IMG/VR virus record: IMGVR_UViG_3300014204_007089
Coordinates: 32,001 to 96,000 of that record
Strand: one strand, 5' to 3'
From: a virus
Lineage: Duplodnaviria > Caudoviricetes
DNA: 64,000 nt
Part shown: in pieces, positions 35,207-54,909 of the stretch
Position numbering within the stretch: position 1 is the stretch's first letter
Layout of the letters: the number at the start of each line of letters is the position of its first letter
Notes under the pieces: generated by a model
The model's database searches: none
The model's input: the letters and a program-made list of their open reading frames with translations, nothing else
What the model was told of the DNA's origin: nothing
Position numbers and translations under genes: made by a program

Positions 35207-35253
35207 TATAATTCCTATAATTTTAACAGCATTATTTACTATTCTTATAATTT

Positions 35254-35515
35254 GTGAACTACCCTCACCTAAAAGTAAGGGGTTTTTGGATCCTCATGGT
35301 TCCAACATATTGAGGATCATCCTCAATAGCTTGTCCCAGGCAATAAATGTTTAATAATTAAAATTTTAATTCGTTTTTCTAAGAATCTTTGTGCTAAAAA
35401 ATAGCACCATGTGATCTTCTATTCAGAATATATCAAGAGATTCCTAAAATAAAGAAAAAAGTTTAACAACAATTCATCCTTCTCCTAAAGGAAAGGGATT
35501 TATTGTTGAAAAAGG
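35254..35515 (-). mobile_element. Non-autonomous IS200/IS605-family element (262 bp) retaining an omegaRNA-like right end
   Basis: Target TTTAA (35516-35520, overlapping the upstream stop codon); left-end hairpin; ends GGTAGTTCAC; homologous to 46703-47012 and 48798-49106 with internal deletions. Confidence 0.85.
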
Positions 35516-35773
35516 TTAAACAGATACTTCTTCTTCTGGCCAAGTAATAACACCAGTATTAATATCAACATTACAACGCGGGTCTAAACCACGCTCAAGG
35601 AAAAATTGTTGTAATTGAAGTTTATATTCAAGTTCAGCAATTCTTGCATCCTTTACTGTTTTTTCAGCGGCTGTAGCAGTTTCAATACCCTTAGTACGTG
35701 CTTCAATAATACCCTTTAATTCTTCCACATCTACTTTAGTTGTTTTCATTATATTGCTCCTTATAATTATCAA
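35516..35773 (-). CDS. Hypothetical protein (likely ATG start at 35749 after AGGAG)
   Basis: ORF track; RBS. Confidence 0.5.
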   Translation of the reverse strand: MIIIRSNIMKTTKVDVEELKGIIEARTKGIETATAAEKTVKDARIAELEYKLQLQQFFLERGLDPRCNVDINTGVITWPEEEVSV

Positions 35774-35800
35774 TTTATTTATATATCACACAAATTTTAA

Positions 35801-36196
35801 TTAATCAAAAATACTCCAAGTTTCTATAATCATTTCATAATAAAGTTGTTTTGATAAATTTCTCGTCTGTTTATTTTGTTTGGTAATAAATTTAGGTTTA
35901 AACCATTCTGCAAATAAAATACCTTTATGATATATAATAGATCCTCTATCACCATTGTCAATTATTTCAATCTCTAATTTTAATAATAAATCTCTTAAAG
36001 ATATTTTTTGTTCTATTGTTAAATATATATCAGGCCAGAATTCTTCTACAGGAATTCCAATTTTTTCTAAAATATCTCTTAAAAAAGAATTTCTTTCTTC
36101 TTCTTCAACTGTTTTTGCATCTTCTCTATCTAAATATATAGATCTTTTTTCAACCACAACCCTTACTCCATCCACATGTACAAGATATACACCCAT
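35801..36196 (-). CDS. Hypothetical protein
   Basis: 131 aa ORF; true start probably nearer the RNR stop. Confidence 0.5.
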   Translation of the reverse strand: MGVYLVHVDGVRVVVEKRSIYLDREDAKTVEEEERNSFLRDILEKIGIPVEEFWPDIYLTIEQKISLRDLLLKLEIEIIDNGDRGSIIYHKGILFAEWFKPKFITKQNKQTRNLSKQLYYEMIIETWSIFD

Positions 36197-39100
36197 CCAT
36201 ATATATTAATTCTTTTCTACCACAACTTGGACATTCACCTCCAGCACTTTCACCATCTATAATGTATTTCTTCAATACTCTAGAAGTAGCTGCTGCTAAA
36301 TCAGAAACATCCTCAGCTGCTTTCCCCAATTGATCTACAATATATTTAATAGGAATAGAATGTCTTAATGAAATAGATACCATTCTAAATAACATTTGTT
36401 CAGATGCTGTAAAATATTCTCCAAAATCATTAAATGAAATAGAATCATCTATAGTTAATTTATATTTACTATGACCTTCTTTTGTCATTGTTCCCTTCTT
36501 GGTCTTAAACTTAAATGCCATTGTTTCAGGAATTAATCCACCAAACATTTCATATGGCATATTGTTTTGTAAACCAACTACCATAATATACTGTTTACCA
36601 TGTACCTTTACTTGATAAACATCACATGGTAATTCTTTTTGTCTTGGTGTAGCGTTTAATGATTTTACACTATCTGATACGATTAAATTAAGTTCTTTAG
36701 CTTCTTCTTCGGTAAAATTACTATTATGAATTTTAATTCCATCATTTTTAAGTTCAAAAGCTAATTGCTTAAACGGAATATATGAAATAATTCCATACAT
36801 CTTCTTATCTTTATAAGCAGCAAGACTCTTTACACCTTTTTTATTTGCTTGAACAATAAGATTATAAATATCTTGCCAAGAAGAATTTTCTGATAAAGAA
36901 TATGTTACCGAAATAGATGAATCAACATATTTCATTAATTTTGACATTAAATTTAATTTATCCAAAGGTTTGATATCACTAGATTTCTTAAATTTAATAC
37001 CAATTTTTTCAGCATTTTCATTAATAAATTTTGCAATTGGAATTCCATTAGATCCATCCCAAGTATCTTTAATAGTATCAGAATTAATAGGAATTGAATA
37101 TCCAGCTTTTTCAAAAGTAGTTCTAACAACATTTGGAACACAAAAATAATATTCATAAAACCCAGAAATTTTAGTACGTTTCCAATAATACATACCAATA
37201 GCTGGTTCCACTCCAGTTGAAATAATATAATCTCTAAACATTAAAGATAGAGTATTATGATTTATAACACCATTTGCAGTTACATATGTATGTTCAGGAT
37301 TGTCTACTTCAATATCATATGTTTTTATTATTTCCCTGGTAATATTTTTAATCTTTAAATTAAAATAATTATCAAAATTAAATGGAAATTTAATAAAATC
37401 ATAAATTTTATTTAAAGTAATTCTATTAATATGAGTTAATAACCCTTTATGTCTATTTAATACTAAATTAATATTATTATACAAATTGCATTTTTTATTA
37501 CGCATTTGTTTACGATACTGTTTTAAAATATAAGATAATATATAAATTTTTTCTTGATCTTTTTTAAAAACTTTTAATTTGTTATTTTTTCTATTACTTA
37601 AAAATCCAATTTTTTTCTTAAATAAATTTTTATCAGATGTAAATCTTATATCAAGATTATACCAAGCTATATTGTTTATATTTTTTTTAAAATTTATAAA
37701 TGATTGTATACCAACATATGTTAATAATTCTTGAACCTCTTGCATAATATTTTTATGTTTTGAACTTAATGAAATATGAGAACTATGAGAAGTTCCATCT
37801 GCTTCAAACAAACCTCTTAAATAAGCACAAATTACTGATTTGGGAGATTTGAAAATATATTCTGGAATATGATAAATATAATTATTTTCAACTCCACGTG
37901 ATGGAAAATCTTTTTTACTAAATCCATTTTTAATAAAATAATTACAAACATTTACAGAATAAATACTTACTGTAAATGTTTTTTCATTATTAGTTTTAAC
38001 AATAGAAACATCACAATTAAATAATTTTTTAATTAAAGTTTGTATTTTTTCAACAAGGTCTATATCTTCATCAAAAACTGTAAATCTAATTGCACTTGCT
38101 TTATCATCTGTACATCTAAAATTTAAACTACCATCACCCGTAAATAATCCTATTATTTCTGCTAACTCTTCAGTCAATTCTACTGGATATTTTAAATTTT
38201 TTATTGAACTAGAATGATTACTATATATGTCAGTATTTAATTTTACATATTGTTTTGGTTCATTATCAGATCCTTTACAAAGAATAGCAATATCACCAAT
38301 CTTTAAATTAGGAGCATATTCCCAATCATATTTCCCATCTTTAAGTATGCGAATTCTATGAGTCTCTGAAACTTTAATTTCACGACCATCTTCAAACTCA
38401 ATTACATATCCATTAACTTCTCCATTATTATAAAATGATAATACTTTACTAGTACCATTTTCATGTGAAATAAATGTTTCAGGAACATTATAACTAAATT
38501 GTTTTTCTTCTGGATACTCATTAACAATATCTTTTATTTTAACTAACCCACGATCTGTAATAATTCTAGTATTTTCTTCAATACATCCAGTTGGAGCAAT
38601 GCTAGAACACGTACAATTACGCATAGTTTCAAATACAAGACCTTGCTCAATCATATTTTTAATGAATGGAGATTGTTCATATTGTTCTTTTACAAACAAT
38701 CCAAATGAACCTTTTTCTTTACCAAGAGAAATAGATGATTCATATAAATAAAAATTATATAATCTATTAAAATCAAATAATGCTTCATTAGCTTGTTCTG
38801 AACCATATTCTAAATTTTGCTTAAAGAACCAAGCTGCAATATTTGTAATGCCAGCTCCTGTCCTTCTAAGTTTTTCAATAGCTAATCTCTGATGAGGAGT
38901 TGAATAGGTTTGTCCAATCAATTCCATTTCATTTACATTATCTAAAAATCTATTAACAGAATAAGAAATGGTTTTTAATTCTTGTGTATAAAGATCTTTT
39001 TCCGTACTAAAACGTCCAGCATTAATAGAAGATAATACACAAACACTATCTCTAGATAGATATTGTTCTGAACACGCATTAGAACTAATCACTTTTGGGC

Positions 39101-40073
39101 AATATTCTCCAGTAGGATCTGTTAAATAATCACTATTTGACCAGTATTTAGCCATATCAATTTGCTGGATACCTGGTTCTCCATGTGAGATGGCATTCTT
39201 TGCAATTAATTCTAATAAATATCTAGCTTTTACTACTTTTTTTACAACTTCTTCTGAACGATCTTTTTTAGCTAATCTATAATATCTTCCTTGTTCATCC
39301 TTTTTACAATCCATATCAGTAGAATGTATATCTACATATACACGATCACCTTTTTTTGTACTAGGAATTGTAAAAGACATTTCCCAATCAGCATCTTCAT
39401 CTACTGCTTTATAAAAAGCATCATTTGTTTGTACTGAAATGTTTGCATTTTGAATAATTGTATGGTCACTTTTTACTTTAATAAATTCTTCAACATCAGG
39501 ATGGTTAATAGAAAGAGAGAATAGCATTGCTGGAATTCTTCCCTTTTGTCCAATATAATTACCAATAGAATCAATAAATTTCATCCAATGAATAACTCCT
39601 TGGCTTTCATTTGATGAATTTCTTACTTCACATCCCCTTGGACGTAGCTTGGAAAAATCTACCCCAAGGCCTTGGCGATATGCGGCCATTTTTGCAACAG
39701 TATACGATGTATTCTTTATAATAGATTCTAAGTTATCCCAATTTGTATCTTCTTGTCCGCCTAAACTTACAGTGGAACAATTAGACATAGAAATAGATTT
39801 ACCAGAATAGGCACCCTGCATAATAGAACCTGCAGGATGCCACCAATCATTATAAATTTCATCAAACCATCTATCAGACCAAAACTTTTTTAATTCTTCT
39901 GTTGATTCACAAGAAGCTATATAATCACAAACTCTTTTGAGTGATTGAACATAAGTTTCTTTTTGTCCATTTATAACTTGTGCATATTTTTTATTAAAGG
40001 CATCAATACTAAATTGATTTCCATTAAAATATTCTTCAGTACTTACATTCATAACATCTTCAAAAGTAACCAT
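36150..40073 (-). CDS. nrdJ: Class II (adenosylcobalamin-type) ribonucleotide reductase with intein and C-terminal TSCPD/Zn-finger
   Basis: SNC, NACSEQ (catalytic Cys/Glu), SIAPTG|T motifs; C-terminal CPSC...CISCTC; no beta subunit adjacent. Confidence 0.8.
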   Translation of the reverse strand: MVTFEDVMNVSTEEYFNGNQFSIDAFNKKYAQVINGQKETYVQSLKRVCDYIASCESTEELKKFWSDRWFDEIYNDWWHPAGSIMQGAYSGKSISMSNCSTVSLGGQEDTNWDNLESIIKNTSYTVAKMAAYRQGLGVDFSKLRPRGCEVRNSSNESQGVIHWMKFIDSIGNYIGQKGRIPAMLFSLSINHPDVEEFIKVKSDHTIIQNANISVQTNDAFYKAVDEDADWEMSFTIPSTKKGDRVYVDIHSTDMDCKKDEQGRYYRLAKKDRSEEVVKKVVKARYLLELIAKNAISHGEPGIQQIDMAKYWSNSDYLTDPTGEYCPKVISSNACSEQYLSRDSVCVLSSINAGRFSTEKDLYTQELKTISYSVNRFLDNVNEMELIGQTYSTPHQRLAIEKLRRTGAGITNIAAWFFKQNLEYGSEQANEALFDFNRLYNFYLYESSISLGKEKGSFGLFVKEQYEQSPFIKNMIEQGLVFETMRNCTCSSIAPTGCIEENTRIITDRGLVKIKDIVNEYPEEKQFSYNVPETFISHENGTSKVLSFYNNGEVNGYVIEFEDGREIKVSETHRIRILKDGKYDWEYAPNLKIGDIAILCKGSDNEPKQYVKLNTDIYSNHSSSIKNLKYPVELTEELAEIIGLFTGDGSLNFRCTDDKASAIRFTVFDEDIDLVEKIQTLIKKLFNCDVSIVKTNNEKTFTVSIYSVNVCNYFIKNGFSKKDFPSRGVENNYIYHIPEYIFKSPKSVICAYLRGLFEADGTSHSSHISLSSKHKNIMQEVQELLTYVGIQSFINFKKNINNIAWYNLDIRFTSDKNLFKKKIGFLSNRKNNKLKVFKKDQEKIYILSYILKQYRKQMRNKKCNLYNNINLVLNRHKGLLTHINRITLNKIYDFIKFPFNFDNYFNLKIKNITREIIKTYDIEVDNPEHTYVTANGVINHNTLSLMFRDYIISTGVEPAIGMYYWKRTKISGFYEYYFCVPNVVRTTFEKAGYSIPINSDTIKDTWDGSNGIPIAKFINENAEKIGIKFKKSSDIKPLDKLNLMSKLMKYVDSSISVTYSLSENSSWQDIYNLIVQANKKGVKSLAAYKDKKMYGIISYIPFKQLAFELKNDGIKIHNSNFTEEEAKELNLIVSDSVKSLNATPRQKELPCDVYQVKVHGKQYIMVVGLQNNMPYEMFGGLIPETMAFKFKTKKGTMTKEGHSKYKLTIDDSISFNDFGEYFTASEQMLFRMVSISLRHSIPIKYIVDQLGKAAEDVSDLAAATSRVLKKYIIDGESAGGECPSCGRKELIYMDGCISCTCGWSKGCG
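37254..38585 (-). mobile_element. Intein (444 aa) with LAGLIDADG endonuclease in RNR
   Basis: APTG|CIEENT...VINHN|TLS; IIGLFTGDG and YLRGLFEADG motifs. Confidence 0.9.
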
Positions 40074-40075
40074 AA

Positions 40076-40723
40076 TTAAATCTCCAAACCTATTAACTCT
40101 TGTTTTAATTTTCTTTTAGCTTCATTTAATAATTTTAAGCATATTACCCTAGTAATCTTCAATTGTCCACATATTTTATCAATTGAATTTAGATTACATC
40201 TATCATTCGTCATTTCATAATGCAACTCTATTACCCGTCTTTGTTCTTCTGGTAATTTTAAAACAGCATTCTTAATGATAATAGAATTTTCACAAGTAGA
40301 AAAATTATCTGATGCACTAGGATTATCATCAATCATTATTGGAATTTGAGAAACTTTATAAGGTTGAATATTTCTAGCGTGCTTTAAAGGTATTTTAATA
40401 GTTGAATGTCTATTTGCTTCTCTACTAACCTTTGTTTTCATATATTTATTAGCCCACCAAAAAAAATCACCCTTTTCAGGATTATATGAATGCAAAGCTG
40501 AATATAATGCAATTCTAGCATCTTGACGAAGATCTTCATAATTAGCAAAATTACGATATCTACGAGTTCTAGCATCTACAAGATACTCTAATTTTTCAAT
40601 ACATAATCCTTGAATTTTTTTTAATTCATTTTTTAGTTTTGAACTTTTTATTTTTTCGTATTCTCTACGAATAGTTACTAATTGAAATACTATATCATTA
40701 ATCTCTATATTATTAGATTTCAT
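40076..40723 (-). CDS. Phage RNA polymerase sigma factor (sigma70-like)
   Basis: Region 2 YEDLRQDARIALYSALHSYNPEKGDFFWWA; region 4 LPEEQRRVIELHY...I...LKITR. Confidence 0.85.
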   Translation of the reverse strand: MKSNNIEINDIVFQLVTIRREYEKIKSSKLKNELKKIQGLCIEKLEYLVDARTRRYRNFANYEDLRQDARIALYSALHSYNPEKGDFFWWANKYMKTKVSREANRHSTIKIPLKHARNIQPYKVSQIPIMIDDNPSASDNFSTCENSIIIKNAVLKLPEEQRRVIELHYEMTNDRCNLNSIDKICGQLKITRVICLKLLNEAKRKLKQELIGLEI

Positions 40724-40732
40724 AGTAATTCC

Positions 40733-40993
40733 TTATTTAGTACCATATAAATTTGCAGCTAAATTATCATTTGTTTTAGCTTGTTTTGCAAGATCCTTTC
40801 CTTCTTTCCATAATTTACGTACAAGATCTTTTCCAGTTAATTCTACTTTTCCAGTAGCTGGTGTTGAAATTAATCTCTTAATATTTCCTTCACTTTTGCA
40901 ATTTGGGCATACAGTAGGAACAGAATCATGTATGCTATAAATATCTTCCCATTCATAACCGCATTTAGAACATCCGTGCTCGTAAGTTGGCAT
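40733..40993 (-). CDS. FmdB-family zinc-ribbon protein
   Basis: MPTYEHGCSKCG...CPNC...RLIS. Confidence 0.8.
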   Translation of the reverse strand: MPTYEHGCSKCGYEWEDIYSIHDSVPTVCPNCKSEGNIKRLISTPATGKVELTGKDLVRKLWKEGKDLAKQAKTNDNLAANLYGTK

Positions 40994-41001
40994 TTTAACT
41001 C

Positions 41002-41178
41002 CTATTTTTGTATCAAATCTTTTCCAAGTACTATTAATTCAACATCATCAATCCAATTTTCTCGAACTCTTTGTTTAAATGATTCATCAATTACTTTGAA
41101 TACCAAATATAAATCTCCTGTAATAGGATCTGTTTCCATTCTTATTGCACGAGCAACTGTATCATTTTTATCTAACAT
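41002..41178 (-). CDS. Small hypothetical protein (58 aa, not in the ORF track)
   Basis: MLDKNDTVARAIRMETDPITGDLYLVF...; start overlaps the DnaB stop (TAATG) with AGAGG upstream; fills the gap to the next gene. Confidence 0.6.
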   Translation of the reverse strand: MLDKNDTVARAIRMETDPITGDLYLVFKVIDESFKQRVRENWIDDVELIVLGKDLIQK

Positions 41179-43397
41179 TAATCCTCTTTTTTATTCTTAG
41201 CTTCTTGAATTTGTTTTATTAAATTAGGAATATTAGAAGATACATCTCCTGGAATTTCATTTTTATTAAATGGAACATCAATTAATGATGAATTTGTAAA
41301 GTTTTTAATAAGACTTCCTTTAGCTAATGGTCCATTTCTATTTTTAACTACATGCCATTTTAAATCTGGAAATATTTCTTCATTTGGTCTTGTTTCAATT
41401 TGTATACCAACATTTACATTATGCATAATTAAACTAGATCTTCCCCATCTATGAACACCAACTCTTCTACTTTCTTCTCCACCACCTTGTGAACCTCTTT
41501 TAATATCTGTTAATTGAGCTGCTGTAATAACTACGCAATCATAAGCTCTACCAAACTCATGTAAACTACAAGCTATAGCCCCCATTTTTAACCAATCTTG
41601 TTCTCTAGCCATAGCTGGATTGTGCATTAAACCCATATAATCTACAACTACAATATCAGGTCGATATCTTAACATAGCATCGTTATATCTTAATTCAATC
41701 TCCTCAATTGTTAAATTTCTAGGCGTGTCTACTATATCAAAATAATACCCTGCATCCTGATATTCTTTTATAAATTTATAAGCTTTTTTTACTCTTATTT
41801 CTTCATCAGCTGTTAAACATGCTTTAGCTAAAGATCTTTGAGGAACATTAGCTAAACTAGCTAAAAATCTCATAAAACAACTTCTATATGGCATTTCTAA
41901 TGAAAAATATAAAATATTATGTCCTTTTGTAATATTAGATACATTTTCCACAGTATTGTCTTGTAACCATATTTGTTTACCCATATTATTAAGTAATTGA
42001 GAATTGTGAGTTGGAATCATTTCTTTACCACAAAGAAAACAACTAGAACTTGAATCTACTTGAATACATTGAACTGGTACAGAATCAACTTTTATAATCT
42101 TTTTAATACTTCTATTTGGGAATGAATTAATACCAAAATAATATGTTTTAAACGAAATAGAATATGTTTCATATGAAGTGCATTTATAATAATCTATAAT
42201 CGGAATTAAACCAACAGATCTTAATAATTCTACTAAATCATATATTAATTCTTTTTCTATATTTTTAGATATAAAACCATCAACAATATAAGAAGAAGAG
42301 AAAAATCCACGTATTAATTCTAATCTTTGATCTATTGATGATTTTAAATATATTTTGGGAATATATTTTTTAACAGAAAAATTATATACATCTAATTCAT
42401 TTGAAATATCTTCAAATAATTCAATACCCGCTAACCACTTACCAAAAATATAAGGGTTAATTGAAAAATCTGCATTTGGGTATAATAAAGGTTTACATGC
42501 TTTAATATAAAAATAATTATTACTAATTTTATCAAATAATTCTTTTGTAGAAAGAGGATAGTTATATTCTTCTACACACCATTTATGATTAGAGTCAGTA
42601 ATAATTTTTGCACCATCTGAAAATTCTATTTCATAACAATCATTACCATTCATTATACCTGATGTAGCTATAATATTACATGGTTTTCCATCATTACCAA
42701 AAACTACATCTCCTACTTTTAATTCCCCCATTGTAGTCCAACCAGTAGGAGTTATTATTGGGGTATTTATAGCTAAGGCTTTCCCACTATTAGTTTCCCC
42801 ACCAACCATTACCAAATCTCCTGAAACAAAACCACCACATACAGTATCAAGCATACTATAATGAGTTTGAATTTCTTGAAAAGATTCAGGATTTAATTTA
42901 TATGAATTATATGATTCTGAAAATTCATCTACATAATCACCAACTGGTTTTTGTGTATATGTTCTTTCTAAATCAAGAGATGTAATTTTACTAATTGCTA
43001 AAGACAATTTATTAAAATAATCTTCAGGATCTTGTGGATGATCTGGATCTTCTAAATTAGCTTGATCGCGAATTTTTTCAACAGAATCTATTTGAAATCG
43101 TTTCTTAAATTGTGTTAAATCATAAGAAAATTCTTTAATATCATATTCTAATGATTCAATTTCATCAAAAGAATCATTAATAATATCAACAATACTAGAA
43201 TTATCCTTATGTCTATCTATCAATGTTCTTCGAGTTGGCGAAGCTTTAAAATGTTGTATATAATCTATAACTAATTTCGCAAATCTTTGAGATTTCTCAT
43301 CAAAAATACTATTATCATATTTATAGCAAAAAGATAAACCATTAACTTTATCAGTAATAATGGATTTTAATATTCTTAGATCTAATTCTTCTTGCAT
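41178..43397 (-). CDS. dnaB: Replicative DnaB-like helicase with intein
   Basis: Walker A GETNSGK|S split by the intein; YFSLEM, VVVDYMGLM, TAAQL, VKNRNGP. Confidence 0.88.
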   Translation of the reverse strand: MQEELDLRILKSIITDKVNGLSFCYKYDNSIFDEKSQRFAKLVIDYIQHFKASPTRRTLIDRHKDNSSIVDIINDSFDEIESLEYDIKEFSYDLTQFKKRFQIDSVEKIRDQANLEDPDHPQDPEDYFNKLSLAISKITSLDLERTYTQKPVGDYVDEFSESYNSYKLNPESFQEIQTHYSMLDTVCGGFVSGDLVMVGGETNSGKALAINTPIITPTGWTTMGELKVGDVVFGNDGKPCNIIATSGIMNGNDCYEIEFSDGAKIITDSNHKWCVEEYNYPLSTKELFDKISNNYFYIKACKPLLYPNADFSINPYIFGKWLAGIELFEDISNELDVYNFSVKKYIPKIYLKSSIDQRLELIRGFFSSSYIVDGFISKNIEKELIYDLVELLRSVGLIPIIDYYKCTSYETYSISFKTYYFGINSFPNRSIKKIIKVDSVPVQCIQVDSSSSCFLCGKEMIPTHNSQLLNNMGKQIWLQDNTVENVSNITKGHNILYFSLEMPYRSCFMRFLASLANVPQRSLAKACLTADEEIRVKKAYKFIKEYQDAGYYFDIVDTPRNLTIEEIELRYNDAMLRYRPDIVVVDYMGLMHNPAMAREQDWLKMGAIACSLHEFGRAYDCVVITAAQLTDIKRGSQGGGEESRRVGVHRWGRSSLIMHNVNVGIQIETRPNEEIFPDLKWHVVKNRNGPLAKGSLIKNFTNSSLIDVPFNKNEIPGDVSSNIPNLIKQIQEAKNKKED
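42003..42779 (-). mobile_element. Class-3 intein (259 aa) in the DnaB P-loop
   Basis: Starts with Ala (ALAINTP); NHKW, VQCIQV and IPTHN|S provide the W-C-T triplet; degenerate LAGLIDADG motifs. Confidence 0.85.
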
Positions 43398-44119
43398 TAA
43401 AGTTCACCTTTGCGAATATTTTCACGAACATCTTTTCCACCAATCACAGGAATGAATCTAACAAGATTAAATAAACTTTCAATACTTGCCTGTAATGGAC
43501 CTGAAAAACTTCCTTCTATTTTTATACTATTTGTACAAAAAAATAAAGGCATTCTATTTTGAATTCTAGTTCTCATAATTGGTTCTAAAATTCTACCAAA
43601 TAAATCTGCAGCATTTTCAGAACCCATAAATCTAGTATCTAATTCATCAATTACAACAAAATCTTCTGATAATAACATTGATCGTGCAGTATTTTTTGTT
43701 TCAGAATCAGTATTTAACATAATATGAATTATATCTGTTAAATTAACATAAAGTGCACTATATTTATTACTCTCTACAACACGCTTTAAAATTGAAGAAA
43801 CCGTGATCGTTTTCCCAGTACCATGGGAACCTGCAAATCTTGCGCTTTGACCTTCTTTGAAAGATTTTTTAATATCTAAAGTAATACTATTGTAATAATT
43901 TTTAAGAATTTTTGGACCAATAAAATCATGCATATCACGCCACCAATAATCAACTGGAATATTGGCATTGTAATAACGTTGAAACATTTCAACAAGCATA
44001 GCCCCATCAGAAGTTAGAATTCCATTATTAGAATGAACTGAAATTATATCATCAATAGCATCATCTAGTTTTTTTCTTGGGATGTTGAGAAAAGGATTTT
44101 GTAAAGTTTGGTGTTCCAA
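43397..44119 (-). CDS. DnaC/IstB-like AAA+ ATPase (helicase loader)
   Basis: GSHGTGKT Walker A; VVIDELD Walker B; adjacent to dnaB. Confidence 0.8.
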   Translation of the reverse strand: MEHQTLQNPFLNIPRKKLDDAIDDIISVHSNNGILTSDGAMLVEMFQRYYNANIPVDYWWRDMHDFIGPKILKNYYNSITLDIKKSFKEGQSARFAGSHGTGKTITVSSILKRVVESNKYSALYVNLTDIIHIMLNTDSETKNTARSMLLSEDFVVIDELDTRFMGSENAADLFGRILEPIMRTRIQNRMPLFFCTNSIKIEGSFSGPLQASIESLFNLVRFIPVIGGKDVRENIRKGEL

Positions 44120-44495
44120 ATATAACCTCTGGAGCTATGGAAAGTTTATTTGAACGTAATAATTTTTCTGCTCGCTTACGTTCCTCATTTGCTTTCAGTT
44201 TATGTAATTCTGATAATTTTTTTGCTCGTAAATCTTCTCTTTGAAATGGTATATGTTCTATTTCTGGTATATCTAAATTTTCTACATATATAGGCTTTTC
44301 AATTTCTTGTAAAATTTTATCACTTGCAACCTTTATATTAACAATATTTTCTTTTGGTTGTAATATAATTGAAATTGATTTATCAGATAATTCAAGAACT
44401 AATTGATTATCAGATAACTCAAGAACTTTACCAGCATCTACAAAACCATTTTTACATATAATTTTTACAAAAGAACCAATTTTAATAAATTCCAT
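44061..44495 (-). CDS. Hypothetical protein (Sm-like N-terminus possible)
   Basis: 144 aa ORF. Confidence 0.5.
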   Translation of the reverse strand: MEFIKIGSFVKIICKNGFVDAGKVLELSDNQLVLELSDKSISIILQPKENIVNIKVASDKILQEIEKPIYVENLDIPEIEHIPFQREDLRAKKLSELHKLKANEERKRAEKLLRSNKLSIAPEVIFGTPNFTKSFSQHPKKKTR

Positions 44496-44505
44496 TGACC
44501 TTCCT

Positions 44506-45114
44506 TTAAATAATATTTAATACAGATTCATCAAAACCAATAGTTTTTAATTCTGTAAATAATTTACCATAAACATCATAAACATTATTATTTGGATCAT
44601 CTTGAATTGCAACTTTTGCAAAAGCTAAATCACCATATGTATTTACATCCAATTCTAAATTAGAAACAATAACTTTATATTTTTCTGGTAAAATTGTTGC
44701 TCTTGTAATTCTATTATTTTTTCTACTCTCTTTCTTAAATTTAAGAATAAAAGCAGTTGTGAAAAAATAAGCAATGCTTGAAATTGTAACTTTTTGTGGA
44801 ATTATTATACAATCAAACATCCAATCAATATAATTTTTAATACTAGTAGAATCTTCAGTTCCTAATGCTAATATCATTCTTCGAAGACAATAAATTTCTT
44901 TACATTTTGTTGGAGGCCCACTAAACGAAAGAGAAAAATCAATTCCCATTTGATCTTTATATCTTTTTAATATATGTCCAAGAAATTGATCTTCTTTCCA
45001 ATTTACTACCGGAATATCAGAATACGAATCAAGCCGTTCCTTGAATTTTCTCCAATAGGCATTTGGTCTGCCATCATGTTTTAATCCGCTTAATTTTCCT
45101 GCTTGTTTAACCAT
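44506..45114 (-). CDS. Hypothetical protein in the replication module
   Basis: 202 aa; RBS GGGAG. Confidence 0.55.
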   Translation of the reverse strand: MVKQAGKLSGLKHDGRPNAYWRKFKERLDSYSDIPVVNWKEDQFLGHILKRYKDQMGIDFSLSFSGPPTKCKEIYCLRRMILALGTEDSTSIKNYIDWMFDCIIIPQKVTISSIAYFFTTAFILKFKKESRKNNRITRATILPEKYKVIVSNLELDVNTYGDLAFAKVAIQDDPNNNVYDVYGKLFTELKTIGFDESVLNII

Positions 45115-45170
45115 AATAAACTCCCGAATATTTAAGTATGCAGTATGCTTAAAAAATTATCAAGAACAAT

Positions 45171-46643
45171 TTAATCTTTCAATGGCCACTGTACTTCAAA
45201 TTCAGTTTCATATATTTCTTTTCTTTTTTTTGCATGTTCACAAAGATACGGCGCTTGATCTGCAAAGTCAATGATTGCTGCAAATTTCTTTCCAGGATAA
45301 GGACGAATTACTCGACCGATTCTTTGTAGTGCTCTTACAGAAGATTTTCCAGCACTACCTATTATTAAACCAGACAAAATTGGTAAATCTAAACCCCAAT
45401 CAAAAATCTTACTTGCTATTATACACTTTATTTTTCCATTTTCAATATCTTTTTTTATTTTTTCACGAACTTTTGAAGGATGCTTTCCACTTAATAGTGC
45501 GGTTGGAACTTTATCTTTTAATTGTTTATATAAAATATCACCATGTTTAATACTATTAAATAATACTAATGGAACTAATCCTTGTTCAATCATTTTTATA
45601 GCACCAGTAACAATCATTCCATTGCGTTGTTCATTTTCAGTAATATATTTAGCATATATTTTTTGATACACACCACTTTTGTATGGATAATATTTTGGTA
45701 CAAGAAAACGAATAATTGGCTTAACTAAATATCCTTGTTTAATTAAATCTTTTGCAGATAAATCAATAATTCTTTTACCAAGAAAAGCTTCTATTAACAT
45801 ATCTTGATTATCATCTCTCCAAGGTGAAGCAGACATTCCATAAACATGTTCAGCTTTAATATTTTGAGAAATTCCTACTAATGTAGGGGCTGCACAAACA
45901 TGTGCTTCATCAATAATAACTACCCTTGCAGAAAGAAGCATTTTCTTTATATCTTGAAATTTTTCTGACGAAACTTCTTTTTCTTTTTCATCAGAATCAT
46001 CCAATGAACATTTTTCCATAATACCCAATGCGCTAGAAATTGTCCAAACACTTGCTATATTAATATTTTTAATGTTACAATGTCCATCACCTATAATACC
46101 AATTTCTTCATCGAAAATTTTAGAAAACACATTATGTGTTTGATATAATAAATCAGTTCCAATTACCATAATTAATGTAGGTTTACCAAATTTAGCTGTA
46201 ATTAATGTTGTACATAAAGTTTTGCCACATCCTGTAGCTGCTTTAATAATACCACGATCATGTTTAACAGCTTCATTAGCAATATTTATTTGATATGGTC
46301 GTGGAACCATATTAATATCCTTTAGCTTTTTTGAAATATCTATTTCTTTTATTGGTGTCTTTGAATTTTTATTATCAACAATTTCAACTTCTATTTTTTT
46401 TTCTTCAAAGAATTTTAATACTCTTTGTAATAAACCAATTGGAAATTTTCCAGTAGAAGACATTAAATATCTTCTACCATCCCATGATACAAAATCACCA
46501 AATTCATTAATATGCCCTTTATATGCTTGTGAAAATTCTGCACCTTGAATAGTAAATGATAATAATTTATTTAATTGTTGATATAATTCAGCATCATTAG
46601 AAAATAATTTACAAGAATTATCGAATACTATTATTTTATTCAT
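45171..46643 (-). CDS. Superfamily 2 (UvsW/XPB-like) DNA helicase
   Basis: PRPYQ, ATGCGKT, IDEAH, GMSASP, QRIGRVIR. Confidence 0.9.
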   Translation of the reverse strand: MNKIIVFDNSCKLFSNDAELYQQLNKLLSFTIQGAEFSQAYKGHINEFGDFVSWDGRRYLMSSTGKFPIGLLQRVLKFFEEKKIEVEIVDNKNSKTPIKEIDISKKLKDINMVPRPYQINIANEAVKHDRGIIKAATGCGKTLCTTLITAKFGKPTLIMVIGTDLLYQTHNVFSKIFDEEIGIIGDGHCNIKNINIASVWTISSALGIMEKCSLDDSDEKEKEVSSEKFQDIKKMLLSARVVIIDEAHVCAAPTLVGISQNIKAEHVYGMSASPWRDDNQDMLIEAFLGKRIIDLSAKDLIKQGYLVKPIIRFLVPKYYPYKSGVYQKIYAKYITENEQRNGMIVTGAIKMIEQGLVPLVLFNSIKHGDILYKQLKDKVPTALLSGKHPSKVREKIKKDIENGKIKCIIASKIFDWGLDLPILSGLIIGSAGKSSVRALQRIGRVIRPYPGKKFAAIIDFADQAPYLCEHAKKRKEIYETEFEVQWPLKD

Positions 46644-46702
46644 ATATTTGATTCTATATCTGCTAGTGAATTATATTTAATATTATTATTTAAAATATTT
46701 AA

Positions 46703-47012
46703 CCTTTTCAACAAGAAGTCCCTTTCCTTTAGGAGAGGGATGAATTGTTGTTAAACTTTTTTCTTTAGAAATTTTCTTTATTTCTAGGAATTTCTTGATA
46801 TATTCTAAATAGGAGATCACATGGTGCTATTTTTTAGCACAAAGCCTCTTTGAGGCTTGATTCAAATATATGATGTGATCTTTTTAGAAAAATGAATCAA
46901 AATTTTAGTTACTAAACATTTATTGCCTGGGACAGGCTATTGAGGATAATTCTCAATATGTTGGAACCATGGCGATCCAAGAAGCCCTTACCTTTAGGTG
47001 AGGGTAGTTCAC
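46703..47012 (+). mobile_element. Non-autonomous IS200/IS605-family element (310 bp)
   Basis: TTTAA target at 46698-46702; left-end hairpin TCCCTTTCCTTTAGGAGAGGGA; right end CCCTTACCTTTAGGTGAGGGTAGTTCAC. Confidence 0.88.
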
Positions 47013-47068
47013 CTATAAATTTAGTAGTTGACATATACTACATATTACTTTATGTAGTTTTATAAAAT

Positions 47069-47104
47069 AAAAAATCAGCTGATATTATTCAATATCAGCT
47101 GATT
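47069..47104 (-). terminator. Terminator hairpin after the tubulin gene
   Basis: AATCAGCTGATATT-loop-AATATCAGCTGATT followed by a T-run on the minus strand. Confidence 0.7.
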
Positions 47105-47120
47105 CACATTATTATTTTAA

Positions 47121-48494
47121 TTATTTTTTTCTACGATCTATAATAGCTCCACTATGTAATTTATTGAAAGAAGATGTTTTTTGTTCAATTTTTCTTTTAA
47201 TCTCATCAACTTTATTTACAGTTTCTTCTCCTACATCTACTTTCATTGTCATTTGACGTTGTTCATCTTTTTTATGTGCAACACCCATTTTTAATTGAGC
47301 TTCTTCTTTTAATTGATCAATACGTTCTGTTGGTAATCCTAATCCTGAAAACATGCTATAAACTTTAATAAAATCTTCAGAAGATTCTTCTTTATAAATA
47401 CCATAAAAGATTGCCAATGGACTATCACACACATCATTAATCATTTGTTGTGCATAATCCAAACTAGAACTTGGAATTTTATTCCAAATACGTTCTGGGG
47501 CTACAAGCATAAAACCTGCATAACGAGCTTGTTTAATATTAAAACCAGATGCTAATAAATTACCCTTTAATGATTCTACAATAGCTGTAGCAATTGCTAA
47601 TTCATTTTCATAATCACTAACTGCCATTTGACCATATACTGTAAAACCTTTACCATCAACAAATAATTTTCCAAATTCAGTAGAATCTAGAACTTTAATA
47701 CCCTCATCCTTTCTACGACTCATTACATTAAATGCATGTAAAGGTTCTACAATTGCTTTATTTGATACTGGAAAGAAATTAAAAGGACCTACATCACTAT
47801 ATAGTGATTCAATTTTAGCATTATCTACCGTGATAATATTATCAATTTTATGTTCATTAAACATCTTAGTAAACTTACTTAAAGTCTGCCAAGCATTATG
47901 TTTTAATTGAGCATCTTCACTAGCCTTTGGAAGAATCGTAAGAACAACAACAGGCTTTCCAAGTTGAGCTAAAATATCAACAACAACTTCTACAGAACCA
48001 GCACCAGAACCACCACCAAGAGATGTACAAAAAATAAACACTTGAACATCTGATAATTTACGTTGAATTAGTTCACTAATAGAATTTCTATAAGCATCAG
48101 CAGCATCTTTACCTAAGGAAAGATCTTTCGCACATCCACCAAGACCAAAATCTAATAAAAGTTTATTTTCTTCTGGTACTTTAATATCTTCAAGATCTTG
48201 TGGAGCTGTATTAAAAACAACAGCCGGATAACCTAATGAACTAAATTGTTCTGCTAAACGGCTACCAGCCTGTCCAGAACCAACAATACCAAAACGAAGA
48301 CTAACTTTTCTTTCTTCAACTATACGTGGTGGCATAGATTCCTCTTCTTGTATTACTTGTGATTCTTCTAATTTTTTTTGAGCAGCTCTCGCTTTAAGAG
48401 CTGCTAGCTTATCAGGATCTACCTTTGGTTTATCCTCTAAATTATTCATAATTTCTTCCTTTTTAATATCTTCAATTTTTGATTCTGTACTCAT
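47121..48494 (-). CDS. Tubulin/FtsZ-family GTPase (PhuZ/TubZ-like)
   Basis: GSGQAGSRLA, NTA..DL, GLGGCAKD...G, signature LGGGSGAG, VDN, LDSTEF. Confidence 0.88.
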   Translation of the reverse strand: MSTESKIEDIKKEEIMNNLEDKPKVDPDKLAALKARAAQKKLEESQVIQEEESMPPRIVEERKVSLRFGIVGSGQAGSRLAEQFSSLGYPAVVFNTAPQDLEDIKVPEENKLLLDFGLGGCAKDLSLGKDAADAYRNSISELIQRKLSDVQVFIFCTSLGGGSGAGSVEVVVDILAQLGKPVVVLTILPKASEDAQLKHNAWQTLSKFTKMFNEHKIDNIITVDNAKIESLYSDVGPFNFFPVSNKAIVEPLHAFNVMSRRKDEGIKVLDSTEFGKLFVDGKGFTVYGQMAVSDYENELAIATAIVESLKGNLLASGFNIKQARYAGFMLVAPERIWNKIPSSSLDYAQQMINDVCDSPLAIFYGIYKEESSEDFIKVYSMFSGLGLPTERIDQLKEEAQLKMGVAHKKDEQRQMTMKVDVGEETVNKVDEIKRKIEQKTSSFNKLHSGAIIDRRKK

Positions 48495-48503
48495 ATTAAT
48501 CTC

Positions 48504-48510
48504 TATATCA
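48504..48510 (-). promoter_or_regulatory. Candidate early/middle promoter, type example of TGATATA
   Basis: 9 nt upstream of the tubulin ATG; the same motif at 2585, 7393, 24735, 27448, 35782, 52927 and 54890, and inside the non-autonomous elements. Confidence 0.5.
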
Positions 48511-48797
48511 CTCTTTTATTTTTTTTTAAATAGTGGAAATCTTTTAATAAGTAATAATATTTTATAGAAAATAGATACTGCTTTTTTAAGATTTTTAATT
48601 TTAGTGAGCTTTCTTTTATATTTGTTTTATCTGATGTTTTTATCATTTCATCTAATTGCTTTAATATTATTAAACGTTGTTCATAACTTATATTTTTTTT
48701 TCTTCCTTTGTAACATCTTTTATTGTTTCTTCCTTATAATATATAATAATATATGACCATATATTTTAATTTTCTAGTAAAAATACATCATTTTTAA

Positions 48798-49106
48798 CCT
48801 TTTCAACAAGAAATCCCTTTCCTTTAGGGGAGGGATGAATTGTTGTTAAACTTTTTTCTTTAGAAATTTTCTTTATTTTAGGAATATCTTGATATATTCT
48901 AAATAGGAGATCGCATGGTGCTATTTTTTAGCACAAAGCCTCTTTGAGGCTTGATTCAAATATATGATGTGATCTTTTTAGAAAAATGAATCAAAATTTT
49001 AGTTATTAAACATTTATTGCCTGGGACAGGCTATTGAGGATAATCCTCAATATGTTGGAACCATGGGGATCCAAGAAACCCTTACCTTTAGGTGAGGGTA
49101 GTTCAC
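48798..49106 (+). mobile_element. Non-autonomous IS200/IS605-family element (309 bp)
   Basis: TTTAA target at 48793-48797; about 9 differences from 46703-47012; inserted in the 3' end of ORF 49047..49334. Confidence 0.88.
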
Positions 49107-49334
49107 TACATCATCTATATATTCACTAATTTTACAATCAATTCCTTGATTTTTTAATTCTAATAAATTTTCTATTAAAATATTACCAAAATATATATTA
49201 GCCAATATACTTTGAACTTCACCTTTTTGTATTCGTGATAATTGTTTATCTGACCATCTATTGTCAGAAATTGCTTTACTTATGCATTTTATAACACGAG
49301 CATAATCTGTAATTGTAGGTAATAATTCTTTCAT
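49047..49334 (-). CDS. Hypothetical protein with C-terminus recoded by the element
   Basis: The last ~19 codons (VNYPHLKV...) derive from the element; removing it gives ...EYIDDVLKMMYFY*. Confidence 0.5.
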   Translation of the reverse strand: MKELLPTITDYARVIKCISKAISDNRWSDKQLSRIQKGEVQSILANIYFGNILIENLLELKNQGIDCKISEYIDDVVNYPHLKVRVSWIPMVPTY

Positions 49335-49337
49335 ATT

Positions 49338-50306
49338 TCACATCTTAAGAACATATCTATTAGTTACATACCATTGACAAACTTGTGTAATTCCATCTCT
49401 AAATTTGTATTGAGGAATCCAATCAATTGATTTTATTTTATCATTATTCATAGAAAATCTAAAATCATTTCCAGTTATATCTGAAATATGTTTTATAAGA
49501 TTGTGACCTCGTCCAATTGCATTACAAACAATTTGAGCAACTTCAAGATTTGTAAATTCTTGTTTTGCTGTTATATTATATAAAGCACCATCTATTCCAT
49601 TATCAATAATATTAAATAAAGCTGAACAAGTATCATATACATGTATCCAATCTCTTACCTGATTACCCTGCCCATAAATTGAAATTTCATTTTCATCGAA
49701 AATACTTTTAATAATTTTTGGAATAAATTTTTCACTAGTTTGCCAAGGTCCATAATTATTACATAATCTAATAATATTATATTTTAAATCATTTGTTATT
49801 CCAGCTGTTTTCGTCAATAATTCTGCAGAAACTTTGGAAGCGGCATATATATTTTTTGGATTTATAAAAGATTCTTCTGTCCATGAAGAATCCTTTTCAT
49901 TATCAAGTGATCCATATACTTTATCAGTGCTAAATAATATAAGTTTAGCCCCTATTTTTATACATTCATTTATTATGTTTTGTGTACCAATTATATTATT
50001 TGTAATAAATGGTATATTATTTTCACTTACACATGATTCATCTGCACCATGAATAATAATATCTGGTTTTTCTTTTTCACAAATAATATGAAGAATATGA
50101 GAATCAAGAACATCAGCAATATAAAAAGAATGATCTGAATTAACGTAGATATTTTGTGTGAGATGAGTTTCTCTAACCCTATCTAAACTAGAAATAATAT
50201 ATGGTTTCTTGTGATAAAATACTTGGCGAATAAAATTACCAAGAATAAATCCACCACTACCTGTTATTAATAATCTACGTTTTTTTATACTCATTTTATT
50301 TGCCAT
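49338..50306 (-). CDS. NDP-sugar dehydratase/epimerase, dTDP-glucose 4,6-dehydratase (RfbB/RmlB)-like
   Basis: LITGSGGFI, STDKVYG, YAASK, NNYGP.Q..EKFIP, GQGNQVRDWIHV. Confidence 0.8.
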   Translation of the reverse strand: MANKMSIKKRRLLITGSGGFILGNFIRQVFYHKKPYIISSLDRVRETHLTQNIYVNSDHSFYIADVLDSHILHIICEKEKPDIIIHGADESCVSENNIPFITNNIIGTQNIINECIKIGAKLILFSTDKVYGSLDNEKDSSWTEESFINPKNIYAASKVSAELLTKTAGITNDLKYNIIRLCNNYGPWQTSEKFIPKIIKSIFDENEISIYGQGNQVRDWIHVYDTCSALFNIIDNGIDGALYNITAKQEFTNLEVAQIVCNAIGRGHNLIKHISDITGNDFRFSMNNDKIKSIDWIPQYKFRDGITQVCQWYVTNRYVLKM

Positions 50307-50330
50307 TTTTTTTTATTTTATATAATATAT

Positions 50331-51872
50331 TTATAACAAATCTAATAAAAATTTTGTATATTTTCTAAATTTTTTATTACAAAAATTATATATATCTGTT
50401 ATTTTAACTGAAGATTCAAAATTTATATCTTTTAATATATAAACAAACATTATTTCTGTTTCTGAAATGTTATTATCTTTTGGATTAATACCAAATTCTT
50501 TTTCATAATATTCACAAGCGTTCTTAAAATCTTCAACAGGATTTTTTTTATATTCTTGAATTTTAATATTTTTAATATTTTTTAAATTTATAACTTCTTG
50601 ATTGATTTTAAAATCTTCTTTAAGAACCTCTGGAATATATCCCAATTGTCTTTGTATAGAATTTATAAATTTTTGTATATTATCTTTTCCCTTTGTTATA
50701 ATTTCTTTATTACTATTTTTAAGATTATTAACTTTATTTATCAGATTTTTATTATCTGTTTTAATATTAATATCAGTATTAAAACAGATTGGGGGATTTA
50801 ACATATTATACAATGGTAAAATAGTTACATTATTCTTTTTATAATTAAAAATATCATTATCAATTACCCATTCAATAGTTTTAATTAAACCATCTCTTAA
50901 TGATGTATTTGCTTTAAATCCTAAAACTTCCTGTGCACGTGATACATCAAGACGTCTAATAGGTTGTCCATTCATATCAATTTTACCATTAAAAACTATT
51001 TTACCAGAATAATTTACAAGTTCTGCTATTAATTCAGCCAAATCTTTTATTGAAATATCAACGCCAGTTCCAAGATTAACCGGATCATTATAATCTACTT
51101 CTTCAACTACAGCTTTACAAATAGCTTCTGCACAATCTTTTGCATAAAAAAATTCTCTGGTAGGAGTTCCATCTCCCCATATTTCTACTTCTGATAAGTT
51201 ATTATTCTTTGAATCAAGAAATTTACGAATTAACGCTGGAATTACATGACCATTTCTATAATCAAAATTATCATAATTACCATACATATTTACTGGTAAA
51301 AAATGCATTCCTTTAAGACCAAATTGATCTCTAAAACATTGTTGCATTAATAGCATTACTCTCTTACTTTCACCATATCCGGCATTTGTAGGTTCTTCAA
51401 ATCCATTCCACAAATCAGTTTCTTTAAATGGAACTGGACAAATTTCCGGATATTCACAAATAGAACCAACTCCATATAAATGAGTAATTGGACGTTCACA
51501 ATTTATTTGTTTAATAGTATTATTTTGCCAAGTATTAATAGTTCTAATACCCTCAAATAAATTAATAGTCATCTTTAAATTTTCATGAATAAAAATAGCT
51601 GGATTATCTTTATTAGCTCCAATACCACCACAAAGAGCAGCCATATGTAAAATAATATTTGGACGATGTTGTTGTAAATATTTTAAAACACTTTCATAAC
51701 TTAATAAGTTTAATTCTTTAGATGATGGTGTTAATAATTTAAATCTTGGTTCTTTTAAATATGCAATATGCTTTGATAAAGGATTAACCTCTCTTGCATA
51801 TTTTTTTAATAAAGGAACAACATGATGACCTAAAAATGATGAACCACCAGTTACTAATATTATCTTTGACAT
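50331..51872 (-). CDS. fcl: GDP-L-fucose synthase with ~175-aa C-terminal extension
   Basis: HMAALCGGIGAN, GSICEYP, EPTNAGYG.SK, HVIPALIRKF, IWGDGTPTREF. Confidence 0.85.
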   Translation of the reverse strand: MSKIILVTGGSSFLGHHVVPLLKKYAREVNPLSKHIAYLKEPRFKLLTPSSKELNLLSYESVLKYLQQHRPNIILHMAALCGGIGANKDNPAIFIHENLKMTINLFEGIRTINTWQNNTIKQINCERPITHLYGVGSICEYPEICPVPFKETDLWNGFEEPTNAGYGESKRVMLLMQQCFRDQFGLKGMHFLPVNMYGNYDNFDYRNGHVIPALIRKFLDSKNNNLSEVEIWGDGTPTREFFYAKDCAEAICKAVVEEVDYNDPVNLGTGVDISIKDLAELIAELVNYSGKIVFNGKIDMNGQPIRRLDVSRAQEVLGFKANTSLRDGLIKTIEWVIDNDIFNYKKNNVTILPLYNMLNPPICFNTDINIKTDNKNLINKVNNLKNSNKEIITKGKDNIQKFINSIQRQLGYIPEVLKEDFKINQEVINLKNIKNIKIQEYKKNPVEDFKNACEYYEKEFGINPKDNNISETEIMFVYILKDINFESSVKITDIYNFCNKKFRKYTKFLLDLL

Positions 51873-51903
51873 ATTTTACCTTTTTATTTATTAAATTTAA
51901 TAT

Positions 51904-52893
51904 TTATAAATTATTTAATAATAGTTTTTCTTTATAAGCTAATTTTAAATCATTATCAACCATTTCTTCAACTAATTGTTTAAATGTATATTTTGGTTTC
52001 CATCCAAGAATTGTACGAATTTTTGTAGAGTCTCCACATAAAGCATCTACTTCAGTTGGTCTAATATATCTAGAATCAAATTCAATATATTTATTATAAT
52101 CTAAATTTAATATATCAAAAACAATCTCTAAAAACTCTTTAACAGAATGCATTTCTCCAGAAGCTACTACCCAATCATCTGCCTTAGGAGAATTAACCAT
52201 CATCCACAATGCGTTAGACACATCCTTAGCATGATTCCAATCTCGTTTAGAATCTAGATTACCAAGAATTAATTTATCTTGTAATCCTATTTTTATTCTA
52301 GCTGCTGCTCTGGTAATTTTTCTTGTAACAAAAGTTTCTCCCCTACGCATACTTTCGTGGTTAAAACTGATTGAATTTGCTGCAAAAAGTTTTTCTGATT
52401 CTCTATAATTAATAACTGACCAATAACCAGCTATTTTTGCAGCTCCATATGGAGATCTTGGATGAAATGGTGTTGTTTCGCTTTGTGGAGGTGGAGAATT
52501 CCCAAACAATTCAGAAGTTGATGCTTGTACAAATTTTGTATGAGAACTAAAATTACATAAAGCTTCTAAACATCTAACAACACCAGTTGCACCAATATCC
52601 ATTGTATATTCTGGAATATCAAAACTTACACGCACATGTGACATTGCAGCCATATTATAAAATTCATCTGGTTGAACTAAACGAACCCAATTGGCTATAG
52701 ATCCGTAATCAGATAAATCACCAAAAGATAAATGCAAGTCATTATAGATATGATTTATTCTCTCAGTATTAAAAGAACTACTACGTCTAATTAAACCATG
52801 TACTTCATAACCCTTCTCTAATAAAATATCAGCTAAATATGAACCAGTTTGTCCAGTAATTCCTGTTATACACGCTCTCTTCATTAAAACCAC
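51904..52893 (-). CDS. gmd: GDP-mannose 4,6-dehydratase
   Basis: ITGITGQTGSYLA, SHVRVSF, QASTSELFG, PRSPYGAAK, FNHES.RRGETFVTRKI. Confidence 0.95.
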   Translation of the reverse strand: MVLMKRACITGITGQTGSYLADILLEKGYEVHGLIRRSSSFNTERINHIYNDLHLSFGDLSDYGSIANWVRLVQPDEFYNMAAMSHVRVSFDIPEYTMDIGATGVVRCLEALCNFSSHTKFVQASTSELFGNSPPPQSETTPFHPRSPYGAAKIAGYWSVINYRESEKLFAANSISFNHESMRRGETFVTRKITRAAARIKIGLQDKLILGNLDSKRDWNHAKDVSNALWMMVNSPKADDWVVASGEMHSVKEFLEIVFDILNLDYNKYIEFDSRYIRPTEVDALCGDSTKIRTILGWKPKYTFKQLVEEMVDNDLKLAYKEKLLLNNL

Positions 52894-52971
52894 ACTTTCA
52901 TTATTTAATAAATCCTAATCAAATAATATATCACCCTTGAAAATGATTTTGTGAAATTTTAATAAAATATA

Positions 52972-54865: not shown

Positions 54866-54909
54866 TATTGTATAATATTCAACTTAGTATATATCAAAGA
54901 ATTCCTAGA

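Follow-up and report, generated by a model that had tools for sequence, protein, structure and literature searches.

IMG/VR virus contig IMGVR_UViG_3300014204_007089 (106,130 bp; 27.5% G+C) derives from an uncultured huge phage, and the window analyzed here is the stretch of 64,000 nucleotides formed by its bases 32001–96000. CheckV completeness of the contig is ~25%, which implies a phage genome of roughly 400 kb. Almost all long open reading frames (ORFs) lie on the minus strand. Three copies of a short IS200/IS605-type mini-element, the subject of this analysis, are present in the window: copy 1 (35254–35515, minus strand; 262 bp), which is an older copy, copy 2 (46703–47012, plus strand; 310 bp), and copy 3 (48798–49106, plus strand; 309 bp), which is the most intact and serves as the reference. 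A search of the whole contig with copy 3 as the query returns copies 3, 2, and 1 with identities of 100, 97, and 79% (E values of 3.5e-161, 1.5e-148, and 2.6e-82), and pairwise identity among the three is 79–97%. Re-reading, alignment, and self-search reproduce to the base the coordinates assigned to the three copies in an initial annotation of this DNA, and the three 20-nt flanks quoted there are correct.

Copy 2 is located between a tubulin/FtsZ-like gene (47121–48494) and a UvsW-like helicase gene (45171–46643), just upstream of the latter, and is antisense to both. The tubulin-like gene is flanked by copies 2 and 3, which read antisense into the 3′ ends of the tubulin-like and epimerase genes, respectively. 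Copy 1 runs in the direction of the phage genes and lies shortly before the next start codon; a 77-aa ORF upstream of it ends in a TAA stop that falls within the TTTAA target of the copy. By reading of the sequence, this TTTAA target directly precedes each copy on its 5′ side (48793–48797 and 46698–46702, plus strand; 35516–35520, minus strand).

The left end of copy 3 has a subterminal hairpin (CCCTTTCC TTTA GGGGAGGG, then ATGAATTG; 48813–48836, plus strand, as are all features of this copy). Downstream of it are the extended −10-like element TTGATATATT (48889–48898), the Shine–Dalgarno (SD) sequence AGGAG (48905–48909), and an ATG (48915–48917) that opens a stub of ~10 codons, the only protein-coding content left in the copies. 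A remnant of the tnpB RuvC-II region (reading IYDVIFLEK), which includes a small hairpin (GCCTC-TTT-GAGGC), occupies 48925–48968. Four hairpins, H1–H4, the presumed omegaRNA scaffold, occupy 49003–49106, end in ...GGGTAGTTCAC, and run colinear with the 3′ end of tnpB and the transposon right end. All three copies terminate in GGGTAGTTCAC, and the left-end hairpin, TTGATATATT, ATGGTGCTATTT, and the 3′ hairpins are found in three of three, in agreement with the initial description of a hairpin, motif, stub start, and 3′ hairpins in each. When aligned with copies 2 and 3, copy 1 is shorter by a 14-nt and a 35-nt stretch and has lost the RuvC-II scrap; as the relatives L016 and L029 (L-numbers denote related loci from scans of IMG/VR and JGI metagenomes, L045–L053 being metagenome records) are likewise without the 14 nt, a small duplication appears to be present in copies 2 and 3.

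In IS200/IS605 transposons of the ISDra2/IS608 type, the TnpB omegaRNA is encoded at the right end and takes its guide from the flank. The TnpB omegaRNA of these transposons was reportedly described in 2021 by Karvelis and by Altae-Tran. The flank that would be the guide of copy 3 is TACATCATCTATATATTCAC (49107–49126, plus strand), and the would-be guides of copies 2 and 1 are at 47013–47032 (plus strand) and 35234–35253 (minus strand). No second near-match to any of these three 20-nt flanks is present elsewhere in the contig.

The source of the mini-elements is a parental IS605-family tnpA/tnpB lineage of huge phages, here named family P, which was found by scanning IMG/VR with a pattern internal to the element and then by a protein-based scan. 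A left end with ATGAATTG and a right-end hairpin with TAGTTCAC are common to all copies and to the full-length relatives; these ends are subterminal imperfect palindromes, and terminal inverted repeats are absent. Full-length family-P tnpB genes (~374 aa; L019–L025) share the right end, and TTTAA precedes their left end. The right 98–108 nt of the mini-element are homologous to the tnpB 3′ ends of full-length and truncated relatives, and its last ~108 nt are colinear with the tnpB 3′ end from just past the RuvC-III motif (...NAARNIYCLGQAIEDNPQYVG...) to the right end. In addition, positions 48925–48968 of copy 3 align to the KYDTIYAEDL-coding region of a near-full-length relative, 402–359 nt from the right end (34 of 44 nt; score 36 versus 20.6 ± 2.7 for shuffles, with a maximum of 34 in 300), which bears out the earlier assignment of IYDVIFLEK to RuvC-II.

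Between the left end and tnpB, L024:1932–2309 matches Y1_Tnp (Pfam, 132 bits), and a Y1 TnpA in the same arrangement in L035 is 72% identical to the L024 homolog. Because L024 and L035 carry both Y1 TnpA and tnpB in huge-phage contigs, family P includes autonomous, phage-resident IS605-type members. A parental TTTAA-type tnpA/tnpB, for which the initial annotation had recommended a search, was thus found in other huge-phage contigs (tnpB in L019–L025; Y1 in L024 and L035), while the present contig yielded no TnpA and only the 5′ end of a third tnpB, which belongs to family P. The latter occupies contig bases 1–160 (minus strand), 32 kb upstream of the window start, begins with MLTFQYKLCPSKEQQTKFWLH... 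after ATTAA, and is cut by the contig start after 20 codons. Its left end and 5′ untranslated region are 93–95% identical to truncated copies in another phage contig.

Intermediate forms make up a decay series that runs from full-length elements through a half-deleted copy still with a 180-aa ORF (L014:6729–7349) and a tnpB pseudogene (L029:4695–5348) to the ~300-bp mini-element and, finally, to ~50-nt solo relics. A near-full-length tnpB (L014:11621–12568), the last 98 nt of which are 96% identical to copy 3, shares a phage contig with mini-element copies. On the strength of this homology to family P, the copies are almost certainly non-autonomous, gene-less internal-deletion derivatives of that family, of the type known as palindrome-associated transposable elements (PATEs) or miniature inverted-repeat transposable elements (MITEs). 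The initial view of them as tnpB-less IS200/IS605 derivatives that keep their ends, a promoter-like element, and a complete 3′ scaffold is thereby upheld. No host or chromosomal source was identified in bacterial and archaeal species genomes, where a scan with the H3 pattern gave three chance matches to an unrelated conserved gene, and INPHARED phages gave no DNA match to the element.

Nucleotide conservation within full-length family-P tnpB is highest in the RuvC-II block, 457–292 nt upstream of the right end (e.g., L020:3065–3230), where identity is 83–96% versus ~70–75% elsewhere in the gene. Within this block, the HKVSK(R/T/K)LG codons form a small hairpin in which two pairs are compensatory, some at the cost of an amino-acid change; the block also includes the extended −10-like word TGATACAAT and may be an internal promoter or RNA element. 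In the mini-element the RuvC-II hairpin is preserved, with a stem compensated in its own way.

Pattern scans of IMG/VR and JGI metagenomes collected at least 11 mini-element copies at distinct sites, including the three in the window. These are ~90–97% identical and have common deletion junctions, which points to a single origin. The −10-like element TTGATATATT is present in 9 of 11 copies. Ten of the 11 are preceded by TTTAA, and the copy of L049 is preceded by ATTAA.

The target and the mobility of the element are both revealed by an empty site in the window. A metagenome contig (L053) is 97.6% identical to window positions 48876–53264 and carries an extra mini-element copy (junction ...CCATATTTAA/CCTTTTCAAC), whereas the window is empty at the same place (...CCATGTTTAA/GATAAG, 53260–53265); the L053 mini-element is inserted exactly at the TTTAA of 53260–53264 (plus strand). 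Since the empty allele has G after TTTAA, the target is TTTAA, as proposed in the initial annotation, and the element starts at C. The alternative target TTAAC, which precedes every family-P-type left end first examined, is ruled out by this G. No target duplication is seen from the left junction, the right junction of the L053 insertion being off the contig. Presence and absence of a copy in near-identical phages indicate that element-free alleles exist in the phage population, as had been supposed, and that mobility is recent. A search of IMG/VR returned no relatives of the tubulin-like protein, and this route therefore gives no syntenic empty site for copy 2 or copy 3.

The empty site lies inside an FkbM-type methyltransferase ORF (52972–53511, minus strand), which the L053 insertion probably disrupts in the relative. 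The methyltransferase of the window itself seems to be split: a 43-aa, N-terminal-like ORF (53474–53605) overlaps the 179-aa ORF at 52972–53511 (TTG start) in another frame of the minus strand, which could be due to a frameshift, a pseudogene, or an assembly error. Both ends of the L053 contig break within mini-element copies. Among the left ends compared (contig ~160, L049:2312, contig 7550, and contig 23272), the two with CCTAACGTG follow ATTAA and those with CCTAATGTG or other variants follow TTTAA; in this very small sample, the DNA guide of the left end may be linked to the first base of the target.

The structure of the scaffold was derived from 13–15 right ends of full-length, truncated, and mini elements. 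RNAalifold gives the four hairpins H1–H4 with 31 pairs, and 96.8% of cells are paired. Eight pairs have changes on both sides, a number matched by 1 of 500 shuffles (slid controls, 0–2). Half of these eight compensatory pairs are in H2, which overlaps coding sequence and differs from the hairpin that TnpA needs. The covariation of H2, outside the TnpA hairpin, thus means that structure is maintained in addition to the transposition signal, as expected for an omegaRNA. Sequence conservation ends at ...TAGTTCAC, the transposon boundary. The initial annotation had suggested a covariance model of the right end; the model built here, R1, matches all three copies over its full length (126.5, 122.8, and 111.5 bits for copies 3, 2, and 1), and gives 31 bits for the right end of the full tnpB element A of the window (described below) and 17–37 bits for the solos. 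The RNA from the promoter region to the guide is predicted to fold with −70.7 kcal/mol (z = −5.2). Rfam returns no match at gathering or permissive thresholds, to a group I intron or to any other family. The mini-element copies vary too little among themselves to show any covariation, and two G·U-compatible changes in the 5′ stem AGATCACAT/ATGTGATCT were dropped as structural support because they are too few.

The best explanation overall, with a probability of about 0.6, is that the copies are family-P derivatives that putatively act as guides in trans. Taken by itself, the proposal that they work as guide-RNA genes for a TnpB supplied in trans is tentative, with the odds slightly against it. 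Points that speak for a guide role are the intact scaffold and promoter in copies 2 and 3, the co-residence of mini-elements in L014 with the near-full-length family-P tnpB mentioned above, and the family-P tnpB 5′ end at the start of the present contig. The initial annotation, taken as a whole, is partly supported.

In the mechanism proposed, a family-P Y1 TnpA would move the copies in trans via single-strand "peel and paste" transposition; the presence/absence polymorphism attests to the mobility, and the action of TnpA in trans is presumed. The retained promoter would yield a transcript with the omegaRNA scaffold at its end and, after it, the local flank as guide. A family-P TnpB expressed from another place, in the phage or in the cell, could load this RNA and cut alleles that consist of TTTAA and the flank without a copy. 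Such copy-free alleles would arise by excision or come from co-infecting relatives, and recombinational repair would then restore or spread the copy. A much bolder extension is that one family-P TnpB, encoded elsewhere in the ~400-kb phage and programmed by several dispersed, promoter-bearing mini-elements that each provide a different site-specific guide, cuts every element-free allele of relatives at many loci simultaneously in mixed infection, as a transposon-borne forerunner of a guide array for phage competition and gene conversion; this is improbable on present indications.

The rival that survives best holds that the copies are inert selfish relics, whose promoter and hairpins were spared by chance in the founding deletions, whose copies are young, and whose RNA has no function. 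This is a minority possibility of appreciable weight. A drop in diversity within the scaffold relative to the remainder of the mini-element was sought and not found: pi is 0.06–0.08 in every segment, and this flat profile gives no sign of selection on the scaffold after the loss of tnpB. Some copies are decayed or truncated, with scaffold or left-end damage (lost hairpins or a lost left-end arm) in L029d, L047, L045, and L048. Independent derivatives keep arbitrary amounts of the right end (H2–H4 in L015/L017, H3–H4 in L039/L042, and H4 only in the solos). Neither a Y1 TnpA nor a complete family-P TnpB was found in the 106-kb contig (~25% of the genome), and the family-P copy at the start of the contig may itself be a pseudogene, truncated as in L014 and L029. 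The two complete TnpBs of the window, encoded by element A (54910–56205, minus strand; 382 aa) and element B (60040–61435, minus strand; 431 aa), are only 31 and 24% identical to family P, respectively, and both elements target TTTAT, so that the cognate TnpB must be sought elsewhere, as the initial annotation had anticipated. All of these observations weigh against a guide role in trans. The uniform diversity, the decay, the varied right ends, and the lack of a complete cognate TnpB in the contig at the same time favor inert relics, as do the existence of solo hairpins and the probable disruption of the FkbM methyltransferase ORF in a relative. Against inert relics, it is the derivative with the promoter and the full scaffold that has multiplied to at least 11 sites in several phages, and derivatives with less scaffold are found at one or two sites each. 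Stem substitutions in copies 2 and 1 are mostly G·U-compatible, which likewise runs counter to that explanation, though they are too few to weigh.

The nature of the promoter-like element bears on a second rival. The 8-mer TGATATAT is the most enriched in upstream intergenic regions of the contig (6 of 36 regions) and is found ahead of the tnpB of element A as well as of several phage genes. It looks like an ordinary extended −10 (TGnTATAAT-like) rather than a phage-specific signal, and the element retained in the copies can reasonably be taken for a putative promoter. The "phage promoter motif" of the initial annotation is not clearly enriched: T[TC]GATATAT[AT] occurs 12 times genome-wide versus 7.6 expected, and the maximum among shuffles is also 12. 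The right-end flank of element A, TCTAGGAATTCTTTGATATATACTAAG (54888–54909, minus strand), closely resembles the mini-element promoter region TTTAGGAATATCTTGATATATTCTAAATAG, and a shared phage promoter context longer than the 10-mer may exist.

The copies might accordingly be mobile cassettes that provide a promoter or a structure (an extended −10, a terminator, or an RNA stabilizer), with copy 1, for instance, driving the downstream gene. The top rank of TGATATAT upstream of phage genes, the terminator-like score of the left-end hairpin with its T-rich stretch, and the placement of copy 1, in the same direction as the operon and shortly before the next start codon, are compatible with such cassettes. 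However, copies 2 and 3 are oriented against the flanking genes, the motif is not clearly enriched genome-wide, and insertion sites vary between related phages, which argues against a fixed regulatory role and makes this explanation very unlikely. The weakest rival, in which the structured ~200-nt transcript is a TnpB-independent small RNA (e.g., one that acts as antisense on the tubulin-like and epimerase genes at their 3′ ends), draws on the strong predicted fold (z −5.2) and the antisense orientation of copies 2 and 3 to their neighbors, but is nearly negligible given that no Rfam family matches, that descent from the tnpB/omegaRNA region fully accounts for the 3′ structure, and that copy 1 is arranged the opposite way.

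Element A is of a different lineage with similar ends, and is bounded by the same end motifs as the mini-elements, GGGATGAATTG on the left and GGGTAGTTCAC on the right. Element B, whose right end is ...GGTGGTTGAC, is of a more distant lineage. Just outside the left end of element B, a weak Y1_Tnp-like match (61467–61607, minus strand; 15.5 bits, E 0.0012) contains two internal stops and may be a tnpA relic or a chance match. A 50-nt solo relic after TTTAA (23562–23611, plus strand), a hybrid of left end and right end, overlaps the last codons of an ORF at 23568–24713 (minus strand). Two more solos are at contig coordinates 22691–22745 and 7496–7550 (both minus strand), outside the window. All three ~50-nt solos follow TTTAA and are made up of the left end's 5′ part, a single hairpin, and the tail of the right end. 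Such a product would be expected from recombination or replication slippage between the left-end and right-end hairpins, which are similar to each other. Isolated left ends also recur in the contig.

The tubulin/FtsZ-like gene is enclosed by copies 2 and 3 as direct repeats with 97% identity and a total span of 46703–49106. Recombination between these copies would delete the gene. In principle, TnpA could pair the left end of copy 2 with the right end of copy 3 and so use the 2.4 kb from one to the other as a single composite element that carries the tubulin-like gene.

If the copies do provide guides in trans, they would represent a natural case of an OMEGA system in which guide and nuclease are physically separated and the guide is multiplied. 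This would be a step often imagined between transposon guide RNAs and CRISPR arrays, in a virus in which homing during co-infection is measurable. Demonstration of phage competition by dispersed multiple guides would be of high interest. Regardless of this, the locus offers a decay series, a TTTAA target, a compact covarying scaffold of ~100 nt, and an occupied/empty polymorphism, all of which are starting points for tests of trans-loading of TnpB.

The mini-elements resemble ISDra2/IS608-type transposons in that their hairpins are subterminal, they insert 3′ of a pentanucleotide, the tnpB 3′ end and the right end together make up the scaffold, and a flank takes the position of the guide. Unlike in these transposons, tnpB is deleted and the scaffold matches no curated RNA family. 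Mini-CRISPR arrays without cas genes in viruses are guide-only loci whose effector is encoded elsewhere, and they have a possible role in inter-virus conflict. The mini-elements are similar to them as guide-only viral loci that would rely on an outside effector, but differ in that the guide is fixed by the insertion site rather than acquired, and in that there are no repeats or spacers.

In homing-endonuclease marker exclusion in T-even phages, and in "transposon non-restorative homing," for which the targets are co-infected phages or plasmids (review, 2026; PMC13565253, Table 1), there is a parallel to the cutting and conversion proposed here for the element-free allele of a co-infecting relative. 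Here, by contrast, the nuclease would be RNA-guided and encoded apart from the guide element, and this is put forward as a proposal only.

The closest precedents are PATEs. Those of Geobacillus stearothermophilus are gene-less, have IS605-type ends, are predicted to be mobilized by TnpA in trans, and frequently encode omegaRNAs that depend on the TnpB of a separate element (Meers et al., 2023; PMC10055086). The mini-elements are likewise gene-less with IS605-type left and right ends. They differ from these PATEs, which reside in a bacterial chromosome, in their huge-phage genomes, full decay series, tnpB promoter/SD stub, and occupied/empty polymorphism. A PATE with IStron ends is known from Clostridioides difficile (Zedaveinyte et al., 2023; bioRxiv 10.1101/2023.11.20.567912). 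It, too, is a derivative without coding capacity in which the ends of an IS605-family tnpB element are retained, but its target is TTGAT rather than TTTAA, and the group I intron of the IStron has no counterpart among the Rfam results here. The "dispersed guide set" of the initial annotation thus extends and combines ideas that are already published, namely PATE omegaRNAs and homing into co-infecting phages, and what is new here is that the setting is a phage, that the decay series can be seen, that target and scaffold are defined, and that sites are polymorphic between occupied and empty.

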